Positions 9,121 to 46,694 of a DNA stretch of 64,000 bases are shown piece by piece. Source of the stretch: an uncultured Alphaproteobacteria bacterium (GTDB taxonomy: Bacteria > Pseudomonadota > Alphaproteobacteria > RF32 > CAG-239); the NCBI GenBank assembly GCA_944391485.1, contig CALXTQ010000018.1, positions 22,619 through 86,618 of the forward strand, given 5' to 3'. The translations under genes were made by a program, and so were the position numbers. A model generated the notes under the pieces. It did not search any database, was not told the origin of the DNA, and saw only the letters and a program-made list of their open reading frames with translations. The first letter of the stretch is position 1; each line of letters begins with the position of its first letter.

Positions 9121-9195
9121 GCCGCCATAGCTCAGTGGTAGAGCACGTCATTGGTAATGACGGGGTCGTAAGTCCGATTCTTACTGGCGGCACCA
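9121..9195 (+). tRNA. tRNA-Thr (anticodon GGU), CCA encoded
   Basis: Cloverleaf read by hand: acceptor GCCGCCA/TGGCGGC, D-arm GCTC-AGTGGTA-GAGC, anticodon arm CGTCA-TTGGTAA-TGACG, variable GGGTC, T-arm GTAAG-TCCGATT-CTTAC, discriminator A, CCA. Confidence 0.88.
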
Positions 9196-9241
9196 TTTTT
9201 AAGATTTCCGCATTTATTGCGGATTTTTTCTTTTTAAACAA
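9177..9241 (+). repeat. attL-like copy: tRNA-Thr 3' end plus terminator
   Basis: Direct repeat partner of 12544-12608. Confidence 0.7.
9204..9230 (+). terminator. rho-independent terminator of tRNA-Thr
   Basis: Stem TCCGCA/TGCGGA (9207-9223) followed by T6. Confidence 0.7.
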
Positions 9242-9248
9242 TAGCTTA

Positions 9249-9364
9249 TTTAGTCCGATTTTATAGATTTTGAAAACAGCAATTTTAAACAAATTATCGG
9301 ACTTTTTGAGCGAAAGCTAAGAAAATCAAGCTTTTTACTAAATAAAATCCCAGTCCGATGACAA
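9249..9364 (+). repeat. junction module type A/B, copy 1 (AGTCCGAT ... ATCGGACT inverted pair plus a third AGTCCGAT)
   Basis: About 115 nt that align by eye, with scattered substitutions, to 10655-10770, and over its first ~60 nt to 12611-12675. Confidence 0.6.
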
Positions 9365-9417
9365 TTAAATCTAAATTAAATAATTACATATTATCCTAAT
9401 ATAGCATTTCATCTAAA

Positions 9418-10251
9418 ATGATCAGGAGCAATAAATTGGTTGCGAGCTTAATAAAATTATCATCTATTATACATTTTGAAAATATACAGGACTACAAAAT
9501 ACACCTTGCCTCAACAGATGGTCAGAGTGAGCCTCTAGATATTTTTTTAACTGATAAAAAGAGATGGATAGGATGGAATGAGTATAAACCACAAACTAAT
9601 GCTTTTAACCGAAAATATATTATTTCTTTTGTAAATGTGTATTATGAAAAAGACACTTGGCTGTTCAGCGGAATTTATGAAGTTTCGGATATAAAAGATG
9701 ACAGGTATGTAATCCACGAAATGCCTTTGTATAACGAATTTATTGGCAGGTTAAAAGTAAATTTGAAATTTTGCGGCAGAAACCGTCGGTTAAATTTTGA
9801 AACCGTTTTTGATGAAATGTATGTAAAAACTATTTTAGAAGAACCTGTTAAATTTAAAAATTTTAAAAATTATAATTCTGTCAGTGTTAGTTATGCAGAT
9901 TTAAAATTTATTATTGATAACCAATTACCGGACTGGCATACGGCATTGCAAAACATTTACGGGGTATATTTAATAAAAGACAAAAATAATGGTAAAGAAT
10001 ATGTCGGCTCGGCGTGTGGTGGCTGTGGAATATGGAACAGATGGAAAGATTATGTTGCAGATGGACATGGTGGAAATAAAGAATTAAAAAAAATTATCAA
10101 AGATAAAGGTTTTGAATATATACAAAATAATTTTCATTACACTTTGCTAGAGCAAATTTTAAATACAGCCTCAAATGAATATGTTATTTCCCGAGAAAAT
10201 TATTGGAAAGAAGTTTTATTATCTAGGAAATTCGGATACAATTCAAATTAG
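9418..10251 (+). CDS. GIY-YIG nuclease-domain protein (C-terminal GIY-YIG, uncharacterised N-terminal domain)
   Basis: GVYLIKDKNNGKEYVGSA...RW..Y...GN..L...RENYWKEVL...GYN matches the GIY...YIG...R...E...N layout. 277 aa, AT-rich. Confidence 0.65.
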   Translation: MIRSNKLVASLIKLSSIIHFENIQDYKIHLASTDGQSEPLDIFLTDKKRWIGWNEYKPQTNAFNRKYIISFVNVYYEKDTWLFSGIYEVSDIKDDRYVIHEMPLYNEFIGRLKVNLKFCGRNRRLNFETVFDEMYVKTILEEPVKFKNFKNYNSVSVSYADLKFIIDNQLPDWHTALQNIYGVYLIKDKNNGKEYVGSACGGCGIWNRWKDYVADGHGGNKELKKIIKDKGFEYIQNNFHYTLLEQILNTASNEYVISRENYWKEVLLSRKFGYNSN

Positions 10252-10259
10252 GCAACAAA

Positions 10260-10514
10260 ATGAAATACTTCATATTTTTTATAGTTTTAATATTTTCAGC
10301 GCAATGTTTTGGGAATGATTGTCATAATATAAAAGACAATGACCTAAAATATCTTTGCCTGAGTAGAAAAAAGAATAATTCAGTATATTGTAACAGCATA
10401 AAGAATCAGGCTAAAAAACAATTTTGTTTGGCCGTTGTAAAAAATGAAAAAAACTATTGTTATTCTATCAATAATGAAGATTTAAAAAACTACTGTCTGG
10501 CAATGGTTGATTAG
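10260..10514 (+). CDS. small secreted Cys-repeat protein
   Basis: Signal-like N-terminus MKYFIFFIVLIFSAQCFG, then three repeats of roughly C-x-(S/N)-I-(K/N)-N-x4-K-x2-C-L. 8 nt after the GIY-YIG gene. Confidence 0.45.
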   Translation: MKYFIFFIVLIFSAQCFGNDCHNIKDNDLKYLCLSRKKNNSVYCNSIKNQAKKQFCLAVVKNEKNYCYSINNEDLKNYCLAMVD

Positions 10515-10540
10515 GATTTTAAATTGCCTCAATTTTTCTT

Positions 10541-10600
10541 CCCAATTCCTTAAAATCCTCATAATCCTGAGTCCGATACTCGCACAGTATCGCGCACCAT
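10541..10600 (+). repeat. junction module type C, copy 1 (ends ...AGTCCGATACTCGCACAGTATCGCGCACCA)
   Basis: Aligns with 12297-12357 and 13633-13684. Followed by its own hairpin plus T-run (10610-10636). Confidence 0.6.
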
Positions 10601-10654
10601 TTTTGAGATAGCACCTTTCAAGGTGCTTTTTTGTTATGTAAACCAAGCCTCCCA

Positions 10655-10770
10655 GCCAATCCGATTTTGGCGGTTTTGAAAAGAGCATTTTTTACAAAAT
10701 TATCGGACTTTTTGTGCGAAGGCTAAGAAAATCAAGCGTTTTGATAAATAAAATTCCCGTCCGATAACAT
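10655..10770 (+). repeat. junction module type A/B, copy 2
   Basis: Aligns with 9249-9364, including ATTATCGGACTTTTTG.GCGAA.GCTAAGAAAATCAAGC. Confidence 0.6.
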
Positions 10771-10771
10771 A

Positions 10772-11569
10772 TTATTTTAATAAGCTTTTTATAAATTTCT
10801 TTGCTAATTTATTCAAAAAATAGTTACTTCGTCGTTCAATTGGTTTTGTAAATCTGCATTTTGGATAGTTACTACATCCAAAGAAATCTCCATATTTTCC
10901 ACTTCTAAAAACTAAAGAATGCCCACACTTTGGACAAATCCCTTGTTGTATCATTTGTTCTTTTGTTGCAATAATATTATGTACTTCTGAAATATGTTGC
11001 CTCCTTGCTTCAGGAGATACAATGTTAAGTTGCGAAATTTTGTCATATAGTTTTTGAATATCGTTTTCCTGAAATTTTATATCAGTATATTCTTTTATTA
11101 GTCTATTAATCTGAGAGATATAAATTACATTGTAAGCTGTATTGACTCGTAAATCAGCCCTGTTTGAGAAAGCGATAATCGGTATAAAATTGTTAAAACT
11201 AATTCCTAATTGTTTGTTTAGGGCTAAAATATGAGCTTTATTTTGCTTAATTGGATTATAAAATTTATATTTGTTACCAAACATATTTTTAGTCCAGTAT
11301 TCTGAATTATCTGAACCTGTAATCCATCCTTTATAATTTTTTGTTTCAATAACAAATATTCCATAAATAGAAATAACAAGATGATCTATTTGGATAGTTC
11401 TGCCATTAGATTCAATTAACAGGTCATTAAATATTTTATACTTGTTAGAAGGAAGAAAAGAAATAATTGTCGCAACACTCTTCTCTCCCAAATATCCTTT
11501 AATTTTAGGTTGAAAAATCCTAAAAGTAATACTTGCTACAACAAGAAATATAAATAAAATTATTTCCAT
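10772..11569 (-). CDS. NERD-domain protein with C-terminal topoisomerase-type C4 zinc finger
   Basis: N-terminal TM helix. NERD-like core GYLGEKSV...IDHLVISIYGIFVIETKNYKGWI. C-terminal CPKCGHSLVFRSGKYGDFFGCSNYPKCRF. Confidence 0.7.
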   Translation of the reverse strand: MEIILFIFLVVASITFRIFQPKIKGYLGEKSVATIISFLPSNKYKIFNDLLIESNGRTIQIDHLVISIYGIFVIETKNYKGWITGSDNSEYWTKNMFGNKYKFYNPIKQNKAHILALNKQLGISFNNFIPIIAFSNRADLRVNTAYNVIYISQINRLIKEYTDIKFQENDIQKLYDKISQLNIVSPEARRQHISEVHNIIATKEQMIQQGICPKCGHSLVFRSGKYGDFFGCSNYPKCRFTKPIERRSNYFLNKLAKKFIKSLLK

Positions 11570-11572
11570 ATT

Positions 11573-12211
11573 TTAATTTTTCATAAAATCAGGAATTTTA
11601 CCGCATTTCTTTTCTATACTTTTAGGCAGCTCTTTTTCAAATTTTTCTTTCTCTGCGGCTGTTTTATCTCTTATAGCCATAAATTCATTTGTAATAAAAT
11701 CAACAACACAATCACACTTGTTTATATTAGCCTTTGTATTTTGTTTTTTATTGTTGATTACAGACAATTTACATTCATAGCGGACATCTTCCATTTTTTC
11801 ATAAAAACGCTCTAAATCTTCCTCTTTTGATGACGAACTAAATTCATAATCAAAACGTATGACAGGAACAGTTTTATGAGTTTTATTTTTTGTTTCATAT
11901 TTATAAACACCATCTTGAACAGCACACTTATTTTCAGGAGAAGAAACATACATTTCATCGTAATACTCTATATTGCGTTGCGGAGTTAATAAAACAACAG
12001 CACCGTTACAGTATGAGGAATCCCAATCTGCAGTACAAGCATTGGCTAAAGCATAATTATCTTCAAATACCTGAAAAACTTGAAAACGCTTCATATCCAT
12101 ACAATTAGGATTCTGTTCTCTATCAGAGTCCATACCTGACAAAACATTTATGGAAGACATTTGAGTGCAACCAAATAACATCAAAATAGTTGCTAATATA
12201 AACTTTTTCAT
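11573..12211 (-). CDS. lipoprotein of unknown function
   Basis: Lipobox MKKFILATILMLFGC. 212 aa. Lies 3 nt upstream of the NERD gene on the same strand. Confidence 0.55.
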   Translation of the reverse strand: MKKFILATILMLFGCTQMSSINVLSGMDSDREQNPNCMDMKRFQVFQVFEDNYALANACTADWDSSYCNGAVVLLTPQRNIEYYDEMYVSSPENKCAVQDGVYKYETKNKTHKTVPVIRFDYEFSSSSKEEDLERFYEKMEDVRYECKLSVINNKKQNTKANINKCDCVVDFITNEFMAIRDKTAAEKEKFEKELPKSIEKKCGKIPDFMKN

Positions 12212-12296
12212 AGTAACCTCTCTTTTTAAGTATACTACAAAAATAAATTTGGATTTTCAAATATATTCTTTCTCTTCAAACAGCTCAATCATCCTA

Positions 12297-12461
12297 CCCC
12301 AATCCTTAAAGTCCTCATAATTTTTAGTCCGATAACTGCACAGTATCGCGCACCATTAAAAAAGCCTCCCTTGTGGAGGCTTTTTTAATGGTTGTTTCGA
12401 GGTTAGAAGCGGACTTACGAAGTAATGTCCGGGGCGGATAGTTGGTAAAAACGAACGCCTA
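12297..12461 (+). repeat. junction module type C, copy 2, with 3' extension
   Basis: 12326-12461 matches 13654-13789 (136 nt) apart from 2 mismatches. Contains hairpin GCCTCC/GGAGGC plus T6 and hairpin CGGACTTAC-GAA-GTAATGTCCG. Confidence 0.75.
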
Positions 12462-12543
12462 ACCTTAGCGAGCAGCTTAGTTAGGCGTGAAGTTTGAACC
12501 TTACGGCGCGAAAGGGGCCCGCGGCACCGCCGTGGGAATTTAC

Positions 12544-12608
12544 ATTCTTACTGGCGGCACCATTTTTTAGATTTCCGCATTTATTGCGGATTTTTTGTTT
12601 TTAAACAA
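12544..12608 (+). repeat. attR-like copy of the tRNA-Thr 3' end plus terminator
   Basis: ATTCTTACTGGCGGCACCA followed by the same TCCGCA/TGCGGA hairpin. The 5' part of the tRNA is absent. Confidence 0.7.
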
Positions 12609-12610
12609 AC

Positions 12611-12675
12611 ACTTATTTAGTCCGATTTTGGTGGTTTTGAAATTGATGATTTTTGCGAAACCATCGGACTTTTTA
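12611..12675 (+). repeat. junction module type A/B, copy 3 (partial)
   Basis: TTATTTAGTCCGATTTTGGTGGTTTTGAAA...CCATCGGACTTTTT aligns with the start of copies 1 and 2. Confidence 0.5.
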
Positions 12676-12821
12676 CCTCAATAATGCAAATTATTGACTT
12701 TTTAGGAAAATTATCTCATAAATTAATTGTCACTTGGGATATTTGTATCCAAGTGATTTTTTTTGCTCTGAATTTCTTCAGGGCTTTTTTTATTTTAAAT
12801 GAATAACGATGGAGGAAAATT

Positions 12822-13226
12822 ATGAATTTAATACAATATATAACCCAAGCAGATCCTGAAGAGAAAATTGTCTCAAGAAAAAACAGTCCTTGGAACAATA
12901 CTAAGAATTGGTACAACGAATATAGCAAAATAAATAAGCTTGCTGATGATAGTGTGACAGATGAAAATAAACATCAGTATATGAGTTGTCTGGCAGGAAA
13001 AGGCGGAAAGTTGGAGGCAACAATTGGTTGGAGTACGGGACTGATTAAAGAAGCTAAAGACTTAGCCCAAAAGATTCCAAACACTGAGACCAGAAGGCGT
13101 TATGGCGGAGTTGGCAATATTTTCAAAGATAGCGCTAAGGACATAACCAATAATTGGAAAGGTTTACACTATGGCTTGGAAAATAAAGGTAAATGTGTCA
13201 ATTTGCTTGAAAGAAAACTTCCTTAA
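12822..13226 (+). CDS. hypothetical protein with weak serum-amyloid-A-like motif arrangement
   Basis: 134 aa. NWYNEYS...DENKHQYMSCLAGKGGK...DSAKDITNNWKG loosely parallels SAA W.AYSDM...[20 protein letters not shown]...DSLADQAANEWG. By-eye similarity only. Confidence 0.4.
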   Translation: MNLIQYITQADPEEKIVSRKNSPWNNTKNWYNEYSKINKLADDSVTDENKHQYMSCLAGKGGKLEATIGWSTGLIKEAKDLAQKIPNTETRRRYGGVGNIFKDSAKDITNNWKGLHYGLENKGKCVNLLERKLP

Positions 13227-13289
13227 TTGACGATTTTTTAAATTTGTGAGAATATCTCTGTATACTTATAATGCTTGGGGTATTCTCAC

Positions 13290-13595
13290 ATGAAATCTAA
13301 AGTTAAATCTTTATTGTTTTGGGCGTTCTTCTTTTTTCTGTTAATTTGCTTAATGTTTTGGGGGGTATTTTTCTTTATAAATACTGGAAATTTCTATTAT
13401 TTTATGGGACGTCTTGTTGAAATTTCGGGCTACTTATTCATTGCTGCGTATGTTGTTTTTACAATTCTTATCTTTACCCATAAATTTCCGGAAAGAATAA
13501 AACGATTTGAAAAGTTTAGATATCTGGGGGTAATGGTTTTGTTAATTTTTATTGAAATCTTCGTGATTGTTTCCGCTCTTCCTGATTTAGATTGA
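13290..13595 (+). CDS. small integral membrane protein (about 3 TM helices)
   Basis: ATG at 13290 (the track uses TTG at 13275). Hydrophobic segments LLFWAFFFFLLICLMFWGVFFFI, ISGYLFIAAYVVFTILIF, LGVMVLLIFIEIFVIVSAL. Confidence 0.45.
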   Translation: MKSKVKSLLFWAFFFFLLICLMFWGVFFFINTGNFYYFMGRLVEISGYLFIAAYVVFTILIFTHKFPERIKRFEKFRYLGVMVLLIFIEIFVIVSALPDLD

Positions 13596-13632
13596 AGTTT
13601 TCTGCACCCACCTCCATTTTTCTTGTTAATTG

Positions 13633-13789
13633 CTTAAACTCTTCATAGTTTTCAGTCCGATAATCGCACAGTATCGCGCACCATTAAAAAAGCCTCCCTT
13701 GTGGAGGCTTTTTTAATGGTTGTTTCGAGGTTAGAAGCGGACTTACGAAGTAATGTCCGGGGCGGATAGTTGGTAAAAACGAACGCCTA
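13633..13789 (+). repeat. junction module type C, copy 3, with 3' extension
   Basis: See 12297-12461. Marks the right edge of the AT-rich region. Confidence 0.75.
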
Positions 13790-13901
13790 TATCACTAAGC
13801 TAATATCGGGATATTCTCACATGAAAACTAAGTTTAAGGCTTGTTTTTTCTAAGGTATATCCTATAATTTTACTTCAGATTTTATATAGAGGAGTTGCAA
13901 A

Positions 13902-43220: not shown

Positions 43221-46200
43221 ATGTCTGAGCCTGAATTTGTACACCTGAGAGTCCATACCGCTTATTCCTTGTCCGAAGGGGCGATGAAAGTTCCCGCCCT
43301 GATTTCCAAAGCCCGGGAGATGGGGTGGCCGGCAATTGCTGTTACCGATACGGCCAATATGTTTGGCGCGAAAGCTTTGTCGCATTTTGCCGCGGACAAT
43401 GGTATTAAGCCGATTCTCGGCTGTCAGTTTTATTTGCGCAATCCCGACGCGGATGATCTGCTGAAATGCAAGGGGCGCACGGTTGAACCTGACAAAATCG
43501 TGCTGCTGGTGCAGAACGACGAAGGGTATCACAACATTATGAAGCTGATGAAACTTTCTTATCTGGATAATCCCGAATTTAACGAAAAGCCGCAGCTTCG
43601 CGTGTCCGATTTCGAAAAACTGAATACGGGGCTGATTGCCCTGACCGGCGGCGTAGAGGGGCCCGTCGGCCGCTTGCTGCTGGAAAACCGCAAGGCTGAG
43701 GCTGAGGAGTTTCTGCTTCGGCTGAAGCAGATTTTCGGCGACCGTCTGTATGTCGAGCTGATGCGCATCGGGACCGAAGCCGAGGCCAAAACGGAAGACG
43801 ATTTCATCAATCTGGCCTATAAACATGAGATTCCGCTGGTTGCCACCAACGAGGCTTTTTTCTTTGAGGCCGATATGTATGAGGCGCACGATGCGCTGGT
43901 CTGCATTGCCGCCGGAGAATATGTCGCCAACGAAAACCGCAAAAAGTTTTCTCCCAACAACCGCCTGCGCAGCCCGGAGGAAATGGTGGAGCTGTTTAAG
44001 GATATTCCGGAGGCGATCAGTAATACGGTTGTTATTGCCAAGCGCTGCAGTTTCCTGAGCAAAAAAGTAAATCCGTTGCTGCCGATTTTTGAATGTCCTG
44101 ACGGCAAAACTCAGGACGAGTTCATTACGGAAGAGGCTTATAAGGGGCTGAAAGAACGAATGGAGGCTCAGGTCTATTTCGAGGGCATGACCGAAGAGCA
44201 GAAAAAGGAAATCGACGAGAAATATTACGCGCGTCTGGATTACGAGCTGAGCGTTATCAAAAAGATGGGGTTCCCCGGCTATTTTCTTATCGTATCGGAC
44301 TTCATCCGCTGGTCAAAAAACAACGGGGTTCCCGTCGGACCGGGCCGAGGTTCTGGCGCGGGATCGATTGTTGCCTGGTCTCTGAAGATTACCGATCTGG
44401 ACCCTCTGAAACTGGATTTGCTGTTTGAGCGTTTCCTAAACCCGGAACGTGTCAACATGCCGGACTTTGACGTTGATTTTTGTCAGGAAAACCGCGGCAA
44501 GACGATAGAATATGTTCAGAATAAATATGGTTTTGACCATGTGGCGCAGATCATCACTTACGGAAAGCTGCAGTCAAAAGCCGTCATCCGCGATGTGGCG
44601 CGCGTTTTGCAGATGCCATATTCGCAGGCCGACCGCATTTCCAAGATGATACCGCCCGGAGTTCAGGGCAAAAACCCGACGCTGCAGGAGGCGCTGGACC
44701 AGGTGCCCGAGCTGGAAGAAATGCGTGTTTCCGATCCGCAGATTAACAAGCTGTTCGACATTGCCATGAAGCTGGAGGGGTTGTACCGCCATTCCGGCGT
44801 TCATGCCGCCGGTGTGGTTATCGGCGACCGGCCTCTGGACCAGCTGGTGCCTCTGTACAAAGATCCCCGCGCCGATATGCCGGTTACCCAATATGACATG
44901 AAATATGTTGAGGAAACGGGACTGATCAAGTTTGACTTTCTGGGGCTTAAGACCCTGACGGTCATCCAGCGGGCTGTCGATTGGATTAAAAAAGAACGCG
45001 GTATAGAGCTTAACATGGACAATGTGCCGCTGGATGACAAACCCACATACGAGCTGTTGCAGCGCGGCGATACGGCAGCCGTTTTCCAGTTTGAATCGGC
45101 CGGTATGAAAGACGTTCACAAACAGATCAAGCCGGACCGTTTTGAAGATCTGATCGCTATTGTGTCTCTGTATCGTCCGGGACCTATGGACAATATTCCG
45201 AGCTATATCAAACGGAAACACGGCGAAGAGGAGATAACTTACCTGCACCCGATGCTGGAGCCGATTTTGAAGGAAACTTACGGCATCATGATTTATCAGG
45301 AGCAGGTTATGAACATTGCCCGGGCGCTGGGCGGTTATACCATGGGCGGCGCGGATAAGCTGCGTAAGGTTATGGGTAAAAAAATGCGCGATGAAATCCC
45401 TAAGCAGCGCAAAATGTTTATGGAGGGCGCCGTCAAAAACGGCATTGAGGAGGCGACGGCCGGCGCGATTTTTGACCAGATGGAAAAATTTGCGTCTTAT
45501 GGCTTCAACAAATCGCATGCCGCGGCTTATTCTCTGATTTCGTATCAGACGGCTTATCTAAAGGCGCATTATCCGGTTGAATTTATGTGCGCGGTAATGT
45601 CTTTGGATATTACGAACACGGACAAGCTTCTCTTCTTCAAGGACGAGTGCAAAAAAATGGGCATAGAGGTGCTGAAGCCGGATATTAACAAGTCCGGATC
45701 GGACTTTGTGGTTGAGGACGGCAAAATCCGTTATGCGCTGGGAGCGGTAAAAGGCGTCGGTGAGGCCAATATGCGATCGATAACCGAAGAGCGTCTGGCT
45801 CATGGGCCTTATAAGGACATTTCGGACTTTATTCACCGGACGGATGCCAAACAGATTAACCGCCGTCAGCTGGAGCAGCTGATTAAGGCGGGCGCATTTG
45901 ACTGTCTGGACAAGAACCGCGGCCGGTTGTTCGCCAATATCGAGACGATCATGCGCCATATCGCTTCGTCAACCGAACTGAAAACCAGCGAACAGAGTTC
46001 GCTTTTTGGCAATGAGGAATTGCAGTCCAAAGTAAAACTGGCCGAGAAACCGGATTGGCCGGAACTCGAGAAGCTGAAGTTGGAGGCCGAAGCCATCGGC
46101 TTTTATTTGTCGGCGCATCCGTTGGACAGTTACGGACGGGGCATGGAGCGTCTCGGCGTCAAAAACTGTTCGGAGGTCTTCCGCAATATCCGGGTCGGCG

Positions 46201-46694
46201 ACAATATCCGGGCCAAGCTGGCCGGATGTGTCAATTCTTTTCAGAAGCGCATCAGCAAAACCGGTAACAAATATGCCTTCCTGGAGCTGTCTGACGCCAG
46301 CGGCAGCTTTGAAGGAATTTTGTTTTCCGAGGTTCTGAACCGTTATGAGGAGGTTATCAATTCCGGACTGCCTCTGTTGGTTTCCGTAACCATAGACAAG
46401 CAGTCGGAGGAAATGAATCCCCGCGTGATGATAAATCTGGTCGAAACGCTGGACAAGGCGGTATCGGAGGTAGCAAACGGCCTGGAAATCTGCATCAACG
46501 ATGTCAGCGCCGTCGGCGGACTCAAACAAATTCTGGGCCGGGATAGAAACGGCCGGAATAAAATATATATAAAACCGGAAAACAACGATTGGGATATCCG
46601 TATTGAACTGGCCGGAGGCTTTGCCTTTGCCGGAGACGATTTCCTCAGCAAAATCCGCAGTCTTCCCGGCGTAACCACTGTAAAGGAAATATAG
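43221..46694 (+). CDS. dnaE: DNA polymerase III alpha subunit
   Basis: PHP N-terminus FVHLRVHTAYSL, GRGSGAGS, PDFDVDF catalytic aspartates, FNKSHAAAYS, OB-fold C-terminus. 1157 aa. Confidence 0.95.
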   Translation: MSEPEFVHLRVHTAYSLSEGAMKVPALISKAREMGWPAIAVTDTANMFGAKALSHFAADNGIKPILGCQFYLRNPDADDLLKCKGRTVEPDKIVLLVQNDEGYHNIMKLMKLSYLDNPEFNEKPQLRVSDFEKLNTGLIALTGGVEGPVGRLLLENRKAEAEEFLLRLKQIFGDRLYVELMRIGTEAEAKTEDDFINLAYKHEIPLVATNEAFFFEADMYEAHDALVCIAAGEYVANENRKKFSPNNRLRSPEEMVELFKDIPEAISNTVVIAKRCSFLSKKVNPLLPIFECPDGKTQDEFITEEAYKGLKERMEAQVYFEGMTEEQKKEIDEKYYARLDYELSVIKKMGFPGYFLIVSDFIRWSKNNGVPVGPGRGSGAGSIVAWSLKITDLDPLKLDLLFERFLNPERVNMPDFDVDFCQENRGKTIEYVQNKYGFDHVAQIITYGKLQSKAVIRDVARVLQMPYSQADRISKMIPPGVQGKNPTLQEALDQVPELEEMRVSDPQINKLFDIAMKLEGLYRHSGVHAAGVVIGDRPLDQLVPLYKDPRADMPVTQYDMKYVEETGLIKFDFLGLKTLTVIQRAVDWIKKERGIELNMDNVPLDDKPTYELLQRGDTAAVFQFESAGMKDVHKQIKPDRFEDLIAIVSLYRPGPMDNIPSYIKRKHGEEEITYLHPMLEPILKETYGIMIYQEQVMNIARALGGYTMGGADKLRKVMGKKMRDEIPKQRKMFMEGAVKNGIEEATAGAIFDQMEKFASYGFNKSHAAAYSLISYQTAYLKAHYPVEFMCAVMSLDITNTDKLLFFKDECKKMGIEVLKPDINKSGSDFVVEDGKIRYALGAVKGVGEANMRSITEERLAHGPYKDISDFIHRTDAKQINRRQLEQLIKAGAFDCLDKNRGRLFANIETIMRHIASSTELKTSEQSSLFGNEELQSKVKLAEKPDWPELEKLKLEAEAIGFYLSAHPLDSYGRGMERLGVKNCSEVFRNIRVGDNIRAKLAGCVNSFQKRISKTGNKYAFLELSDASGSFEGILFSEVLNRYEEVINSGLPLLVSVTIDKQSEEMNPRVMINLVETLDKAVSEVANGLEICINDVSAVGGLKQILGRDRNGRNKIYIKPENNDWDIRIELAGGFAFAGDDFLSKIRSLPGVTTVKEI

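Follow-up and report, generated by a model that had tools for sequence, protein, structure and literature searches.

A probable tandem array of small serine-recombinase-family units at the 3' end of a tRNA-Thr gene in an uncultured alphaproteobacterium

We analyzed a 64-kb window of DNA from an uncultured Alphaproteobacteria bacterium (contig CALXTQ010000018.1, positions 22,619 to 86,618; all coordinates below are those of the window), in which a repeat-rich island follows a tRNA-Thr(GGT) gene. Positions 9196-13790 very probably constitute a tandem array of three small units of a large serine recombinase (LSR) family, located at the 3' end of the tRNA gene and all without a recombinase gene. 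The array is made up of derivatives, not autonomous members, of LSR integrative elements. A first-pass annotation of the same DNA had proposed stepwise accretion of small units at a tRNA-anchored site-specific recombination site, and this was supported, with the repeated modules marking unit boundaries. Its choice of a tRNA octamer as the unit of repetition was not, as the modules instead correspond to an LSR tail (the C module), a relic of the LSR 3' end, and the original chromosomal flank.

Repeated modules of the island and the recombinase tail

The chromosomal anchor is the tRNA-Thr(GGT) gene at 9121-9195 on the plus strand (ARAGORN; Rfam tRNA, 70 bits), in which the octamer AGTCCGAT straddles the T stem (its last 2 nt) and the T loop (6 nt). 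The 64-kb window contains 12 exact matches to the octamer compared to 1.5 expected, a count reached by none of 100 shuffles, and 10 of the 12 lie within 9171-13661, where ~0.1 would be expected. These ten copies start at 9171, 9252, 9296 (complement), 9352, 10570, 10702 (complement), 12326, 12619, 12663 (complement), and 13654. All ten positions had been given correctly in the first-pass annotation, its chance figure of ~0.1 per 4.6 kb agrees with our scaled window expectation, and its near-copies at 10658 (AATCCGAT) and 10758 (CGTCCGAT) were also recovered, together with further near-copies at 12408 and 13736 (AGCGGACT). Outside the island there are only two copies, at 44294-44301 and 45698-45705 (minus strand), both inside a 1157-aa open reading frame (ORF) at 43221-46694, which is the chance level. 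The T loop of the tRNA (9171-9177) reads UCCGAUU, with C at position 55, and is the same in all related loci. Since position 55 of the T loop is a nearly universal U (pseudouridine 55) in tRNAs, a C55 loop is unusual and makes the octamer distinctive.

The island has a G+C content of ~29-35%, compared to ~49% for the surrounding genome. Repeat finding and self-BLAST resolved three copies of the C module, at 10527-10601, 12283-12357, and 13611-13685 (81-89% identity); a 131-nt repeat (T1/T2) of the tRNA 3' end, a hairpin, and an inverted module, at 9177-9307 and 12544-12674; and two further pairs, 9254-9374 with 10660-10780 and 12305-12461 with 13633-13789 (96% identity). Self-BLAST detected no copy of the island repeats elsewhere in the 64-kb window; the ordered modules described earlier are real and, within the window, confined to the island. 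The proposal that each junction has three parts, namely a tRNA or C-module end, a hairpin with a T-run, and an inverted octamer module, describes two of the four junctions in this simple form, those at the tRNA and after the first C module (C1), and fails after C2 and C3. After C2 there are, in order, a terminator, a conserved RNA-like segment of ~155 nt, a 19-nt copy of the tRNA 3' end, and the hairpin with its inverted module, and after C3 a truncated copy of the RNA-like segment alone. The end string reported for the C modules also needs amending for C2, which reads TGCACAGTATCGCGCACCA and differs in its first base.

Judged by its coding capacity, the C module is the C-terminal tail of an LSR in the attP configuration, with attP lying in the 3'-terminal part of the LSR gene. 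The copies encode, on the minus strand, WCAILC(E/S/D)YRT(Q/K/E)(D/N)YE(D/E)FK... in a frame that opens exactly at TGG, the complement of the CCA end, and stays open to a stop codon. Counted on the alignment of the three window copies, 11 of 21 variable sites are third codon positions. An alternative view of the C module as an RNA structure (a pseudo-T-arm) was rejected, as its supposed stems show no covariation, while the third-codon variation and the matching protein tails indicate coding sequence.

The recombinase itself is encoded in the sister strain L006, whose MurA is 100% identical to that of the window (ORFs for MurA, a HAD hydrolase, and KdsB border the array, and MurA places the organism among uncultured alphaproteobacteria). 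There, a 515-aa LSR with Pfam Resolvase, Recombinase, and Zn_ribbon_recom domains lies antisense to tRNA-Thr and abuts it, with its stop codon inside the tRNA (...DKWCRQ, then stop). The far end of the L006 element carries a C module, followed by the flanking terminator (D), the RNA-like segment (X), and the partial tRNA, as in the window. All 340 homologues of this LSR contain the sequence ...KPFD.LLKTPE..KWC, after which the tails diverge. Forms of 540-548 aa end in the C-module peptide (WCAILCSYRTENYDEFKELTRKMELFED...), and this match identifies C as the attP-form LSR tail. The shorter forms (514-526 aa) terminate in WCR(Q) or WCRWQESDLRPRHYQ, and the latter tail, up to its stop codon, is the exact antisense translation of the L016 tRNA-Thr. 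Homologues at 40-50% identity have other antisense-tRNA tails (WLGQLDSNQ...). The LSR was also found in L014-L017, L102, L122, L142, and L164. The closest NCBIfam model is XisF, with a score under that model's cutoff. No candidate for a directionality factor or regulator emerged beside the LSR, where small ORFs in L014, L015, and L017 had no Pfam match.

We propose that an autonomous element, in the orientation of the window, would consist of an LSR gene (minus strand, 3' end at the junction), cargo, and a C module. The LSR frame of a circular or tandem element (attP form) would cross the junction into C and encode 540-548 aa ending in ...KWCAILC.YRT..YE.FK..., and in the integrated form it would run antisense into the tRNA and stop early (...KWCRQ, then stop; 514-526 aa). 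Integration would then swap the LSR tail, with 26-33 C-terminal residues replaced by 1-12 (~30 in a few homologues) read antisense from the tRNA.

Attachment sites and a 52-bp palindrome

Four junction types, all of them seen across ~70 species, can be named from this arrangement. The tRNA forms attB when the native flank (D + X) comes next and attL when an LSR 3' end or relic does; C forms attR before the native flank and, as in tandem arrays, an attP-like junction before an LSR 3' end or relic. A rough census of genome loci gave 71 C/relic, 19 tRNA/relic, 15 C/D, 9 C/LSR, 4 tRNA/D, and 4 tRNA/LSR junctions, and the combined genome and metagenome set contained 7 tRNA/D-X and 65 tRNA/other junctions. 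The sole sequence present in all four types is the 8-bp core GCACCATT, located at 9190-9197 (no strand assigned), and the homology of unit 1 in the L071 locus also begins at 9190. Because nothing else is common to the four junctions, strand exchange would fall within GCACCATT, which leaves the tRNA intact.

In the window, the attB-type left half-site is the last ~25 nt of tRNA-Thr (within 9121-9195), with the form AGTCCGAT-N12-GCACCA. The attP-type left arms of units 1, 2, and 3 are C1 (10527-10599), C2 (12283-12355), and C3 (13611-13683), all on the minus strand, where C1, an LSR tail of the attP form, reads WCAILCEYRTQDYEDFKELGRKIEAI and C2 reads WCAILCSYRTKNYEDFKDWGRMIELFEEKEYI, each up to a stop codon. 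C1 and the P' arm of unit 2 form an attP-like tandem junction, and C2 and C3 form attR junctions with two copies of the flank, D1 and D2.

From the start of the octamer to the 'CA' of the core, the distance is 20 nt in the tRNA and 25 nt in C. In serine integrases, the motif for the zinc-ribbon domain lies 5 bp nearer the centre in attB than in attP (PMC3783163). The left half-sites fit this 5-bp shift exactly, and the right half-sites show no clear motif. By analogy, AGTCCGAT is most likely the motif read by the LSR zinc-ribbon domain. In tRNA-Leu(TAA), an occasional alternative target, GGTTCGAT stands in place of the octamer.

The hairpin and inverted-octamer module on the other side of each junction, here called the P' arm, is best read as a relic of the LSR gene 3' end. 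In intact LSR genes, the inverted octamers are codons for KSPII (AGT CCG AT.) and LSDC (.TA TCG GAC T), 44 nt apart, and a third octamer lies just upstream of the ribosome-binding site. The P' arms of the window contain stop codons and a tRNA-terminator hairpin, yet the octamers and their 44- and 56-nt spacings are kept, and these spacings recur in many species. The P' arm of unit 1 (9196-9367), a relic of the LSR gene 3' end and 5' leader, has its terminator hairpin at ~9203-9229, the palindrome AGTCCGAT-N36-ATCGGACT at 9252-9303, and the third octamer at 9352-9359. In unit 2 (P' arm 10600-10774), the hairpin is at 10610-10633, the palindrome at 10658-10709 with AATCCGAT as its left octamer, and the third octamer, CGTCCGAT, at 10758-10765. 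The P' arm of unit 3 (12563-12675) has a hairpin at 12574-12597 and a palindrome at 12619-12670, and it supplies the best island match to the LSR (12551-12676 against LSR aa 466-515; tblastn E=1.5), with a residual reading of KSPMVSQK...SD against KSPIISQK...LILSD. None of the three P' arms is assigned a strand.

The recombinase-less backbone of hairpin, palindrome, and third octamer 56 nt further on is found with varied cargo in many species, either beside a tRNA or after C. Conservation of the octamers in these recombinase-less arms is a moderate signal, and compensatory change in a distant LSR clade is the stronger argument. This clade (46% identity) integrates at tRNA-Leu(CAA), and its palindromes (L095 1638-1689 and L097 4195-4246) have the same 44-nt spacing as window 9252-9303. 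Their octamers have changed yet remain perfectly complementary (TGTTCGAT/ATCGAACA in L095 and AGTTCGAT/ATCGAACT in L097), and the encoded residues are altered. Because both arms change in a compensatory manner while the encoded amino acids change, the 52-bp palindrome appears to be a DNA-level cis element within the coding sequence, and is probably a second LSR-binding site. Its length, 52 bp, is the size of an attP-type binding site. At L095 ~1566-1600, the conserved LSR motif KPFDKLLFSKG is encoded by a hairpin with a 10-bp stem and a T-rich run after it on the tRNA strand, and the LSR coding sequence of this clade seems to double as the terminator of the abutted tRNA.

Distribution, movement of units, and alternative explanations

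A degenerate C pattern was searched against GTDB species representatives, and a separate metagenome scan matched at least 120 stretches. The genome search produced 87 matches in 75 stretches from ~70 species, with 1-2 loci per genome; all hosts are uncultured Alphaproteobacteria of human, ruminant, and other guts. Of the 75 stretches, 31 had tRNA-Thr(GGT) and 3 had tRNA-Leu(TAA) upstream on the same strand. Among the metagenome matches listed (at least 120 stretches), tRNA-Thr(GGT) was present in 38 of 120, any LSR remnant in 26, and a near-full-length LSR in only 4. Most members of the family are reduced to defence cassettes that lack the recombinase. The largest arrays have five palindrome modules in 8 kb (L041, L068, and L079).

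Cassette content varies between species and between strains with 100% identical MurA, a comparison that the first-pass annotation had proposed. Five contigs of such strains (L001-L004 and L007) lack window 9177-12543 (3367 bp) and have unit 3 alone, and L006 has the LSR and a SoFic gene in place of units 1 and 2. The arrangement seen in the window was assembled independently in two other samples. In four further, independent assemblies of the same species (L005, L008, L009, and L010), the sequence breaks within or just after tRNA-Thr, which fits heterogeneity of the array within populations. In L011-L013 (88% MurA identity), synteny beside murA is broken, and these loci supplied the unoccupied tRNA/D-X junction.

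Representatives of three further species carry unit 1 (window 9190-10601) at 94-96% DNA identity: downstream of tRNA-Leu(TAA) in L071, where the homology begins precisely with GCACCA, after the C module of another unit in L085, and after the partial tRNA copy in L067. Among the metagenome matches listed, the same cassettes occur in other orders and with other partners: the lipoprotein gene of unit 2 with or without NERD, the NERD unit in first or second position, and UzuA after a lipoprotein unit. From these sequence contexts, unit 1 appears to behave as a separate module bounded by the points of recombinase crossover. The tRNA-Leu and tRNA-Thr junctions share only GCACCA(TT), which is too short for homologous recombination and therefore supports mobilization by an LSR. 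We infer that an LSR mobilizes recombinase-less units, either in trans or as a composite with an LSR-bearing unit.

Decay of the recombinase gene can be followed through a series of 5' deletions, in which LSR remnants start at aa 162, at aa 252-286, or at ~aa 455-468. In P0188, LSR residues 250-514 are preceded, in one fused ORF, by residues 1-217 of a NERD protein that shares 78% identity with the window NERD. The same form, a cargo N-terminal part joined to an LSR C-terminal half, was observed in P0165, P0167, P0174, P0179, P0188, P0189, and P0203, with NERD, DNA methyltransferases, DpnII- and NgoFVII-type endonucleases, and Fic as cargo partners. Such fusions indicate recurrent deletions that remove the LSR catalytic domain.

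In the model that we propose for array growth, newcomers would integrate at the tRNA and shift older units distally, leaving C/P' junctions between units and a C/native-flank junction at the far end. LSR genes would shrink by 5' deletion to a relic of ~170 bp with the terminator, the 52-bp palindrome, and the third octamer. The recombinase-less units would stay substrates for an LSR acting in trans, so that mostly anti-phage cassettes could move among arrays, tRNAs, and species, and homologous recombination between modules would add deletions and duplications, such as the 3367 bp (9177-12543) missing in sister strains. The furthest-reaching form of this model, which we put forward tentatively and at somewhat below an even chance, is that the arrays are a working cassette platform. 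A cassette would then be defined by a right-end C module and a left-end module of ~170 bp (tRNA terminator, 52-bp palindromic recombinase site, and third half-site); a rare LSR from another unit would excise and re-insert recombinase-less cassettes in trans, with the tRNA-Thr T loop and its unusual C55 as the recognition motif and the tail swap tuning LSR activity.

Several observations weigh against this reconstruction. There is no recombinase in or beside the island and no LSR gene in the 64-kb window, and the recombinase link comes from sister strains and other species. The P' and B' right half-sites have no recognizable octamer at the expected position, the zinc-ribbon assignment of AGTCCGAT is purely by analogy, and in the distant clade the T-loop octamer of the tRNA (GGTTCAAG) matches the attP octamer (TATCCGAT) poorly. 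To our knowledge, canonical serine integrases do not recombine attP with attL, so repeated integration beside a resident P' arm would need a relaxed or attB-like right half-site. The LSR crossover does not explain why the 19-nt partial tRNA has its boundary in the T loop, a position typical of tyrosine integrases. No recombination event was observed in the data. Circular junctions, which the first-pass annotation had suggested looking for, were not found: complete contigs had no terminal overlaps, and neither a circle nor a tandem junction of unit 1 was matched in the metagenome scan. Finally, nearly all comparison sequences are metagenome assemblies, in which repeats can be mis-joined, a concern countered by the independent assembly of the window arrangement in two other samples.

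The competing explanation that we take most seriously, while still considering it unlikely, is decay in place: units arrived as autonomous elements, lost their LSR, and are now dead and never mobilized in trans, with sharing achieved by larger DNA transfers and homologous recombination. The abundant LSR 5'-deletion series and fusion ORFs would follow from it, as would the failure to find circular forms. Homologous recombination between modules also clearly occurs, since the 3367-bp difference from sister strains is bounded by the 131-nt T1/T2 repeat. This explanation has difficulty with the occurrence of the same recombinase-less backbone with different cargo in many species and array positions, and with the four contexts of recombinase-less unit 1, including a tRNA-Leu(TAA) junction that shares only GCACCA(TT).

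That same 3367-bp difference could instead mark a classical tyrosine-integrase island of 3.4 kb with 9177-9195 and 12544-12562 as attL and attR, given that a tRNA fragment starting in the T loop is the usual signature of such islands (PMC4383910) and that sister strains lack exactly the segment between the repeats. We consider this improbable because no tyrosine integrase was called beside the site at any locus examined, the repeat is 131 nt long and runs on into the LSR relic, the partial tRNA is fused to X in many species and always followed by a P' arm, and the C modules and tail-swapped LSR proteins would be left unexplained. The likeness to an integron that had been suggested earlier holds for the logic of the array, with its small one- or two-gene units, structured repeats between them, diverse cargo, and strain variation; membership is excluded, as there is no tyrosine integrase, attI, or attC, and orientation is mixed. 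An integron-like platform, in which a resident integrase captures promoterless cassettes through attC-like hairpin sites, is thus very improbable: no integrase lies beside the array, the window has neither attI nor Pc, cassettes occur in both orientations with their own intergenic regions, and the junction repeats are LSR coding relics and a tRNA terminator rather than attC bulged hairpins. Least credible of all is chance clustering of a generic dispersed family of repetitive extragenic palindromes or miniature inverted-repeat transposable elements (REP/MITE). Short AT-rich repeats with inverted repeats and hairpins would suit such a family, but the 64-kb window has no other copies, and the cross-genome module search that the first-pass annotation had offered as a check returned 1-2 loci per genome in ~70 species, normally downstream of tRNA-Thr(GGT).

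Relation to known systems, cargo, and the native flank

The earlier statement that no described system has this layout was too strong, because composite islands of the staphylococcal cassette chromosome mec (SCCmec) and Enterococcus cassette chromosome (ECC) type and tycheposon accretion work alike. We regard the array layout as a serine-recombinase analogue of SCC composite islands and tycheposons, and not as an integron; it is a member of none of these classes. As in integrons, small, diverse, exchangeable cassettes form an anchored array with conserved recombination sites between them. The differences from integrons lie in the family of the recombinase and in the structure of its sites, the junctions here being 250-330-bp composites of an LSR-tail coding relic, a terminator, and a relic of the LSR 3' end. 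Moreover, the LSR is carried by an occasional unit rather than being resident, and cassettes have their own expression signals and either orientation.

The SCC group includes ccr-less pseudo-SCC elements. In SCCmec and ECC, Ccr large serine recombinases act at the 3' end of rlmH and composite arrays contain several att copies (PMC6222049). The resemblance lies in an LSR that inserts cargo at the 3' end of a conserved gene and keeps that gene intact, in tandem att copies or remnants, and in variable cargo (PMC6222049); the three recombinase-less units bounded by att repeats correspond to the composite-array feature of SCC. Here, in contrast, the target is the CCA end of a tRNA rather than rlmH, a single LSR takes the place of the CcrAB pair, units are 1-2 kb instead of 20-80 kb, attP is inside the LSR gene, and the hosts are gut Alphaproteobacteria. 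Among the tycheposons of Prochlorococcus, a minority (27 of 937) have an LSR (bioRxiv 10.1101/2020.12.28.424599). There too, successive integrations at the same tRNA push older elements inward, and degenerate elements, partial tRNAs, and adaptive or defensive cargo are present. Tycheposons differ in mostly using tyrosine recombinases, often carrying replication genes, and being flanked by partial tRNAs, whereas here the crossover would be at the very end of the tRNA, integration would make no tRNA fragment, no replication genes were seen, and the single partial tRNA is tied to X and not to each unit.

Cis-mobilizable elements (CIMEs) and integrative mobilizable elements, known alongside streptococcal integrative and conjugative elements, include recombinase-less, att-flanked DNA that can be in tandem with a recombinase-bearing element and mobilized in cis or in trans. 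The units described here are similarly att-flanked, recombinase-less, and in tandem; CIMEs are larger and use tyrosine or other integrases, and mobilization in trans is a proposal in our case. A gene that spans attP and has its coding sequence changed on integration is also a property of SSV-type archaeal integrases and of IntP of myxophage Mx8, whose C-terminal region is altered on integration (cited in PMC4383910); unlike the LSR, these are tyrosine recombinases. With integrated LSR elements elsewhere, the arrays share four junction types related by one reciprocal exchange in a very short core, and the 5-bp shift of the left half-site.

Among integrases, the tyrosine family is the one classically associated with tRNA genes. 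According to the Islander paper of 2014 (PMC4383910), targeting of tRNA genes was not known for serine integrases, and an LSR family that reads antisense into tRNA 3' ends would use an uncommon target for large serine recombinases. In the literature searched, we found no described system that combines a serine recombinase with a tRNA 3' end and with arrays of cassettes of 1-2 kb, and later reports may exist. As the att sites, including the probable zinc-ribbon motif, can be read from sequence, the family could be useful for prospecting integrases with predictable natural landing sites. The arrays would also explain turnover of anti-phage genes (Uzume, SoFic, restriction-modification, and NERD) in very small modules in a widespread, uncultured group of gut and rumen Alphaproteobacteria. 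If the trans-mobilized platform is real, gut Alphaproteobacteria would have, for their anti-phage genes, a serine-recombinase equivalent of the integron.

Across arrays, the cargo is diverse, with 144 ORFs in 110 families, and defence genes are abundant in it. Represented are type I, II, and IIG restriction-modification genes, NERD, AbiEii-like ATPases, and PDC-S04, as well as NUDIX, GNAT, ankyrin, and MFS proteins, and the Fic protein of L006 is SoFic (PADLOC E=2.9e-119). No primase, helicase, or polymerase was among the commonest Pfam families of the 90 cargo families scanned. In the window, unit 1 carries a 277-aa UzuA homologue at 9418-10251 on the plus strand (PADLOC UzuA E=3.7e-50 over the full length; Pfam GIY-YIG, the C-terminal domain, E=3.6e-4), followed by an ORF for an 84-aa Cys-rich, secreted-looking protein at 10260-10514 (plus strand). 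The 84-aa ORF follows the UzuA homologue in every case (the window, L067, L071, L085, L140, and L184), and UzuA with this signal-peptide-like partner may be a two-gene variant of Uzume, which has been described as a single-gene system. The cassettes have their own intergenic regions. Unit 2, whose orientation is opposite to that of units 1 and 3, encodes, on the minus strand, a NERD protein with a Top1-type zinc ribbon at 10772-11569 (Pfam NERD 2.7e-30, Zn_ribbon_Top1 3.7e-16) and a 212-aa putative lipoprotein with no family match at 11573-12211. Unit 3, on the plus strand, encodes a 134-aa protein at 12822-13226, which has homologues in many arrays and no family match, and a 106-aa membrane protein at 13275-13595. 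The label 'SAA-like' previously attached to the unit 3 protein had no support from Pfam, NCBIfam, or PADLOC, and four of the six window cargo genes received no family assignment from these three resources.

The original chromosomal flank (B', comprising D1 and X) occupies 12356-12543 on the plus strand, with a bidirectional terminator at 12364-12386 and the RNA-like element X at 12390-12543. X directly follows the unoccupied tRNA-Thr in other species, which identifies it as the original flank, and it is also present in L013 (1190-1352) and 12 other species. In an alignment of 14 species, 32 base pairs are predicted, and compensatory changes are seen at 14; the covariation score is above all 500 shuffles, slid controls are four- to twelve-fold lower, and G-U pairs favour the plus strand. 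No Rfam family matched X in six species (E<=1-5), and on this sequence evidence X is likely an unclassified structured RNA. A tmRNA or tRNA-like gene at 12390-12562 was considered and rejected, as there was no ARAGORN tmRNA call or Rfam match, no acceptor-stem partner was visible, and the tag frames contain stops. The first hairpin of X (GGACTTAC..GTAAGTCC) is an inverted repeat of the T-stem/loop sequence of tRNA-Thr.

Joined to the end of X is the 19-nt copy of the tRNA-Thr 3' end, from T loop to CCA (12544-12562, plus strand), which is fused at a constant position and carries each species' own acceptor sequence. Some 40 genuine X-linked partial tRNAs (counted from 56 regular-expression matches) are all followed by a P' arm and none by native flank. 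Tandem landing pads, in which native terminator, X, and partial tRNA would be repeated, are disfavoured, as native flank follows 0 of ~40 partial compared to 7 of 72 full tRNAs. The most economical reading, which is unproven, is that an occupied site was duplicated in tandem once, long ago, and that the tRNA end and its copy later underwent unequal crossing-over. If correct, it would explain the intact LSR elements between two X copies in L102, the strains without 9177-12543, and the truncated D2. The latter (13684-13789, plus strand) consists of a second terminator copy and the first ~70 nt of X (13718-13789), and is 96% identical to 12356-12461. It is followed at 13808-13849 (plus strand) by a 5'-terminal remnant of a second, paralogous copy of the gene for the 106-aa membrane protein (79% identity to 13277-13318), and the position of this relic after the truncated D2 points to a formerly longer array that was shortened by deletion.

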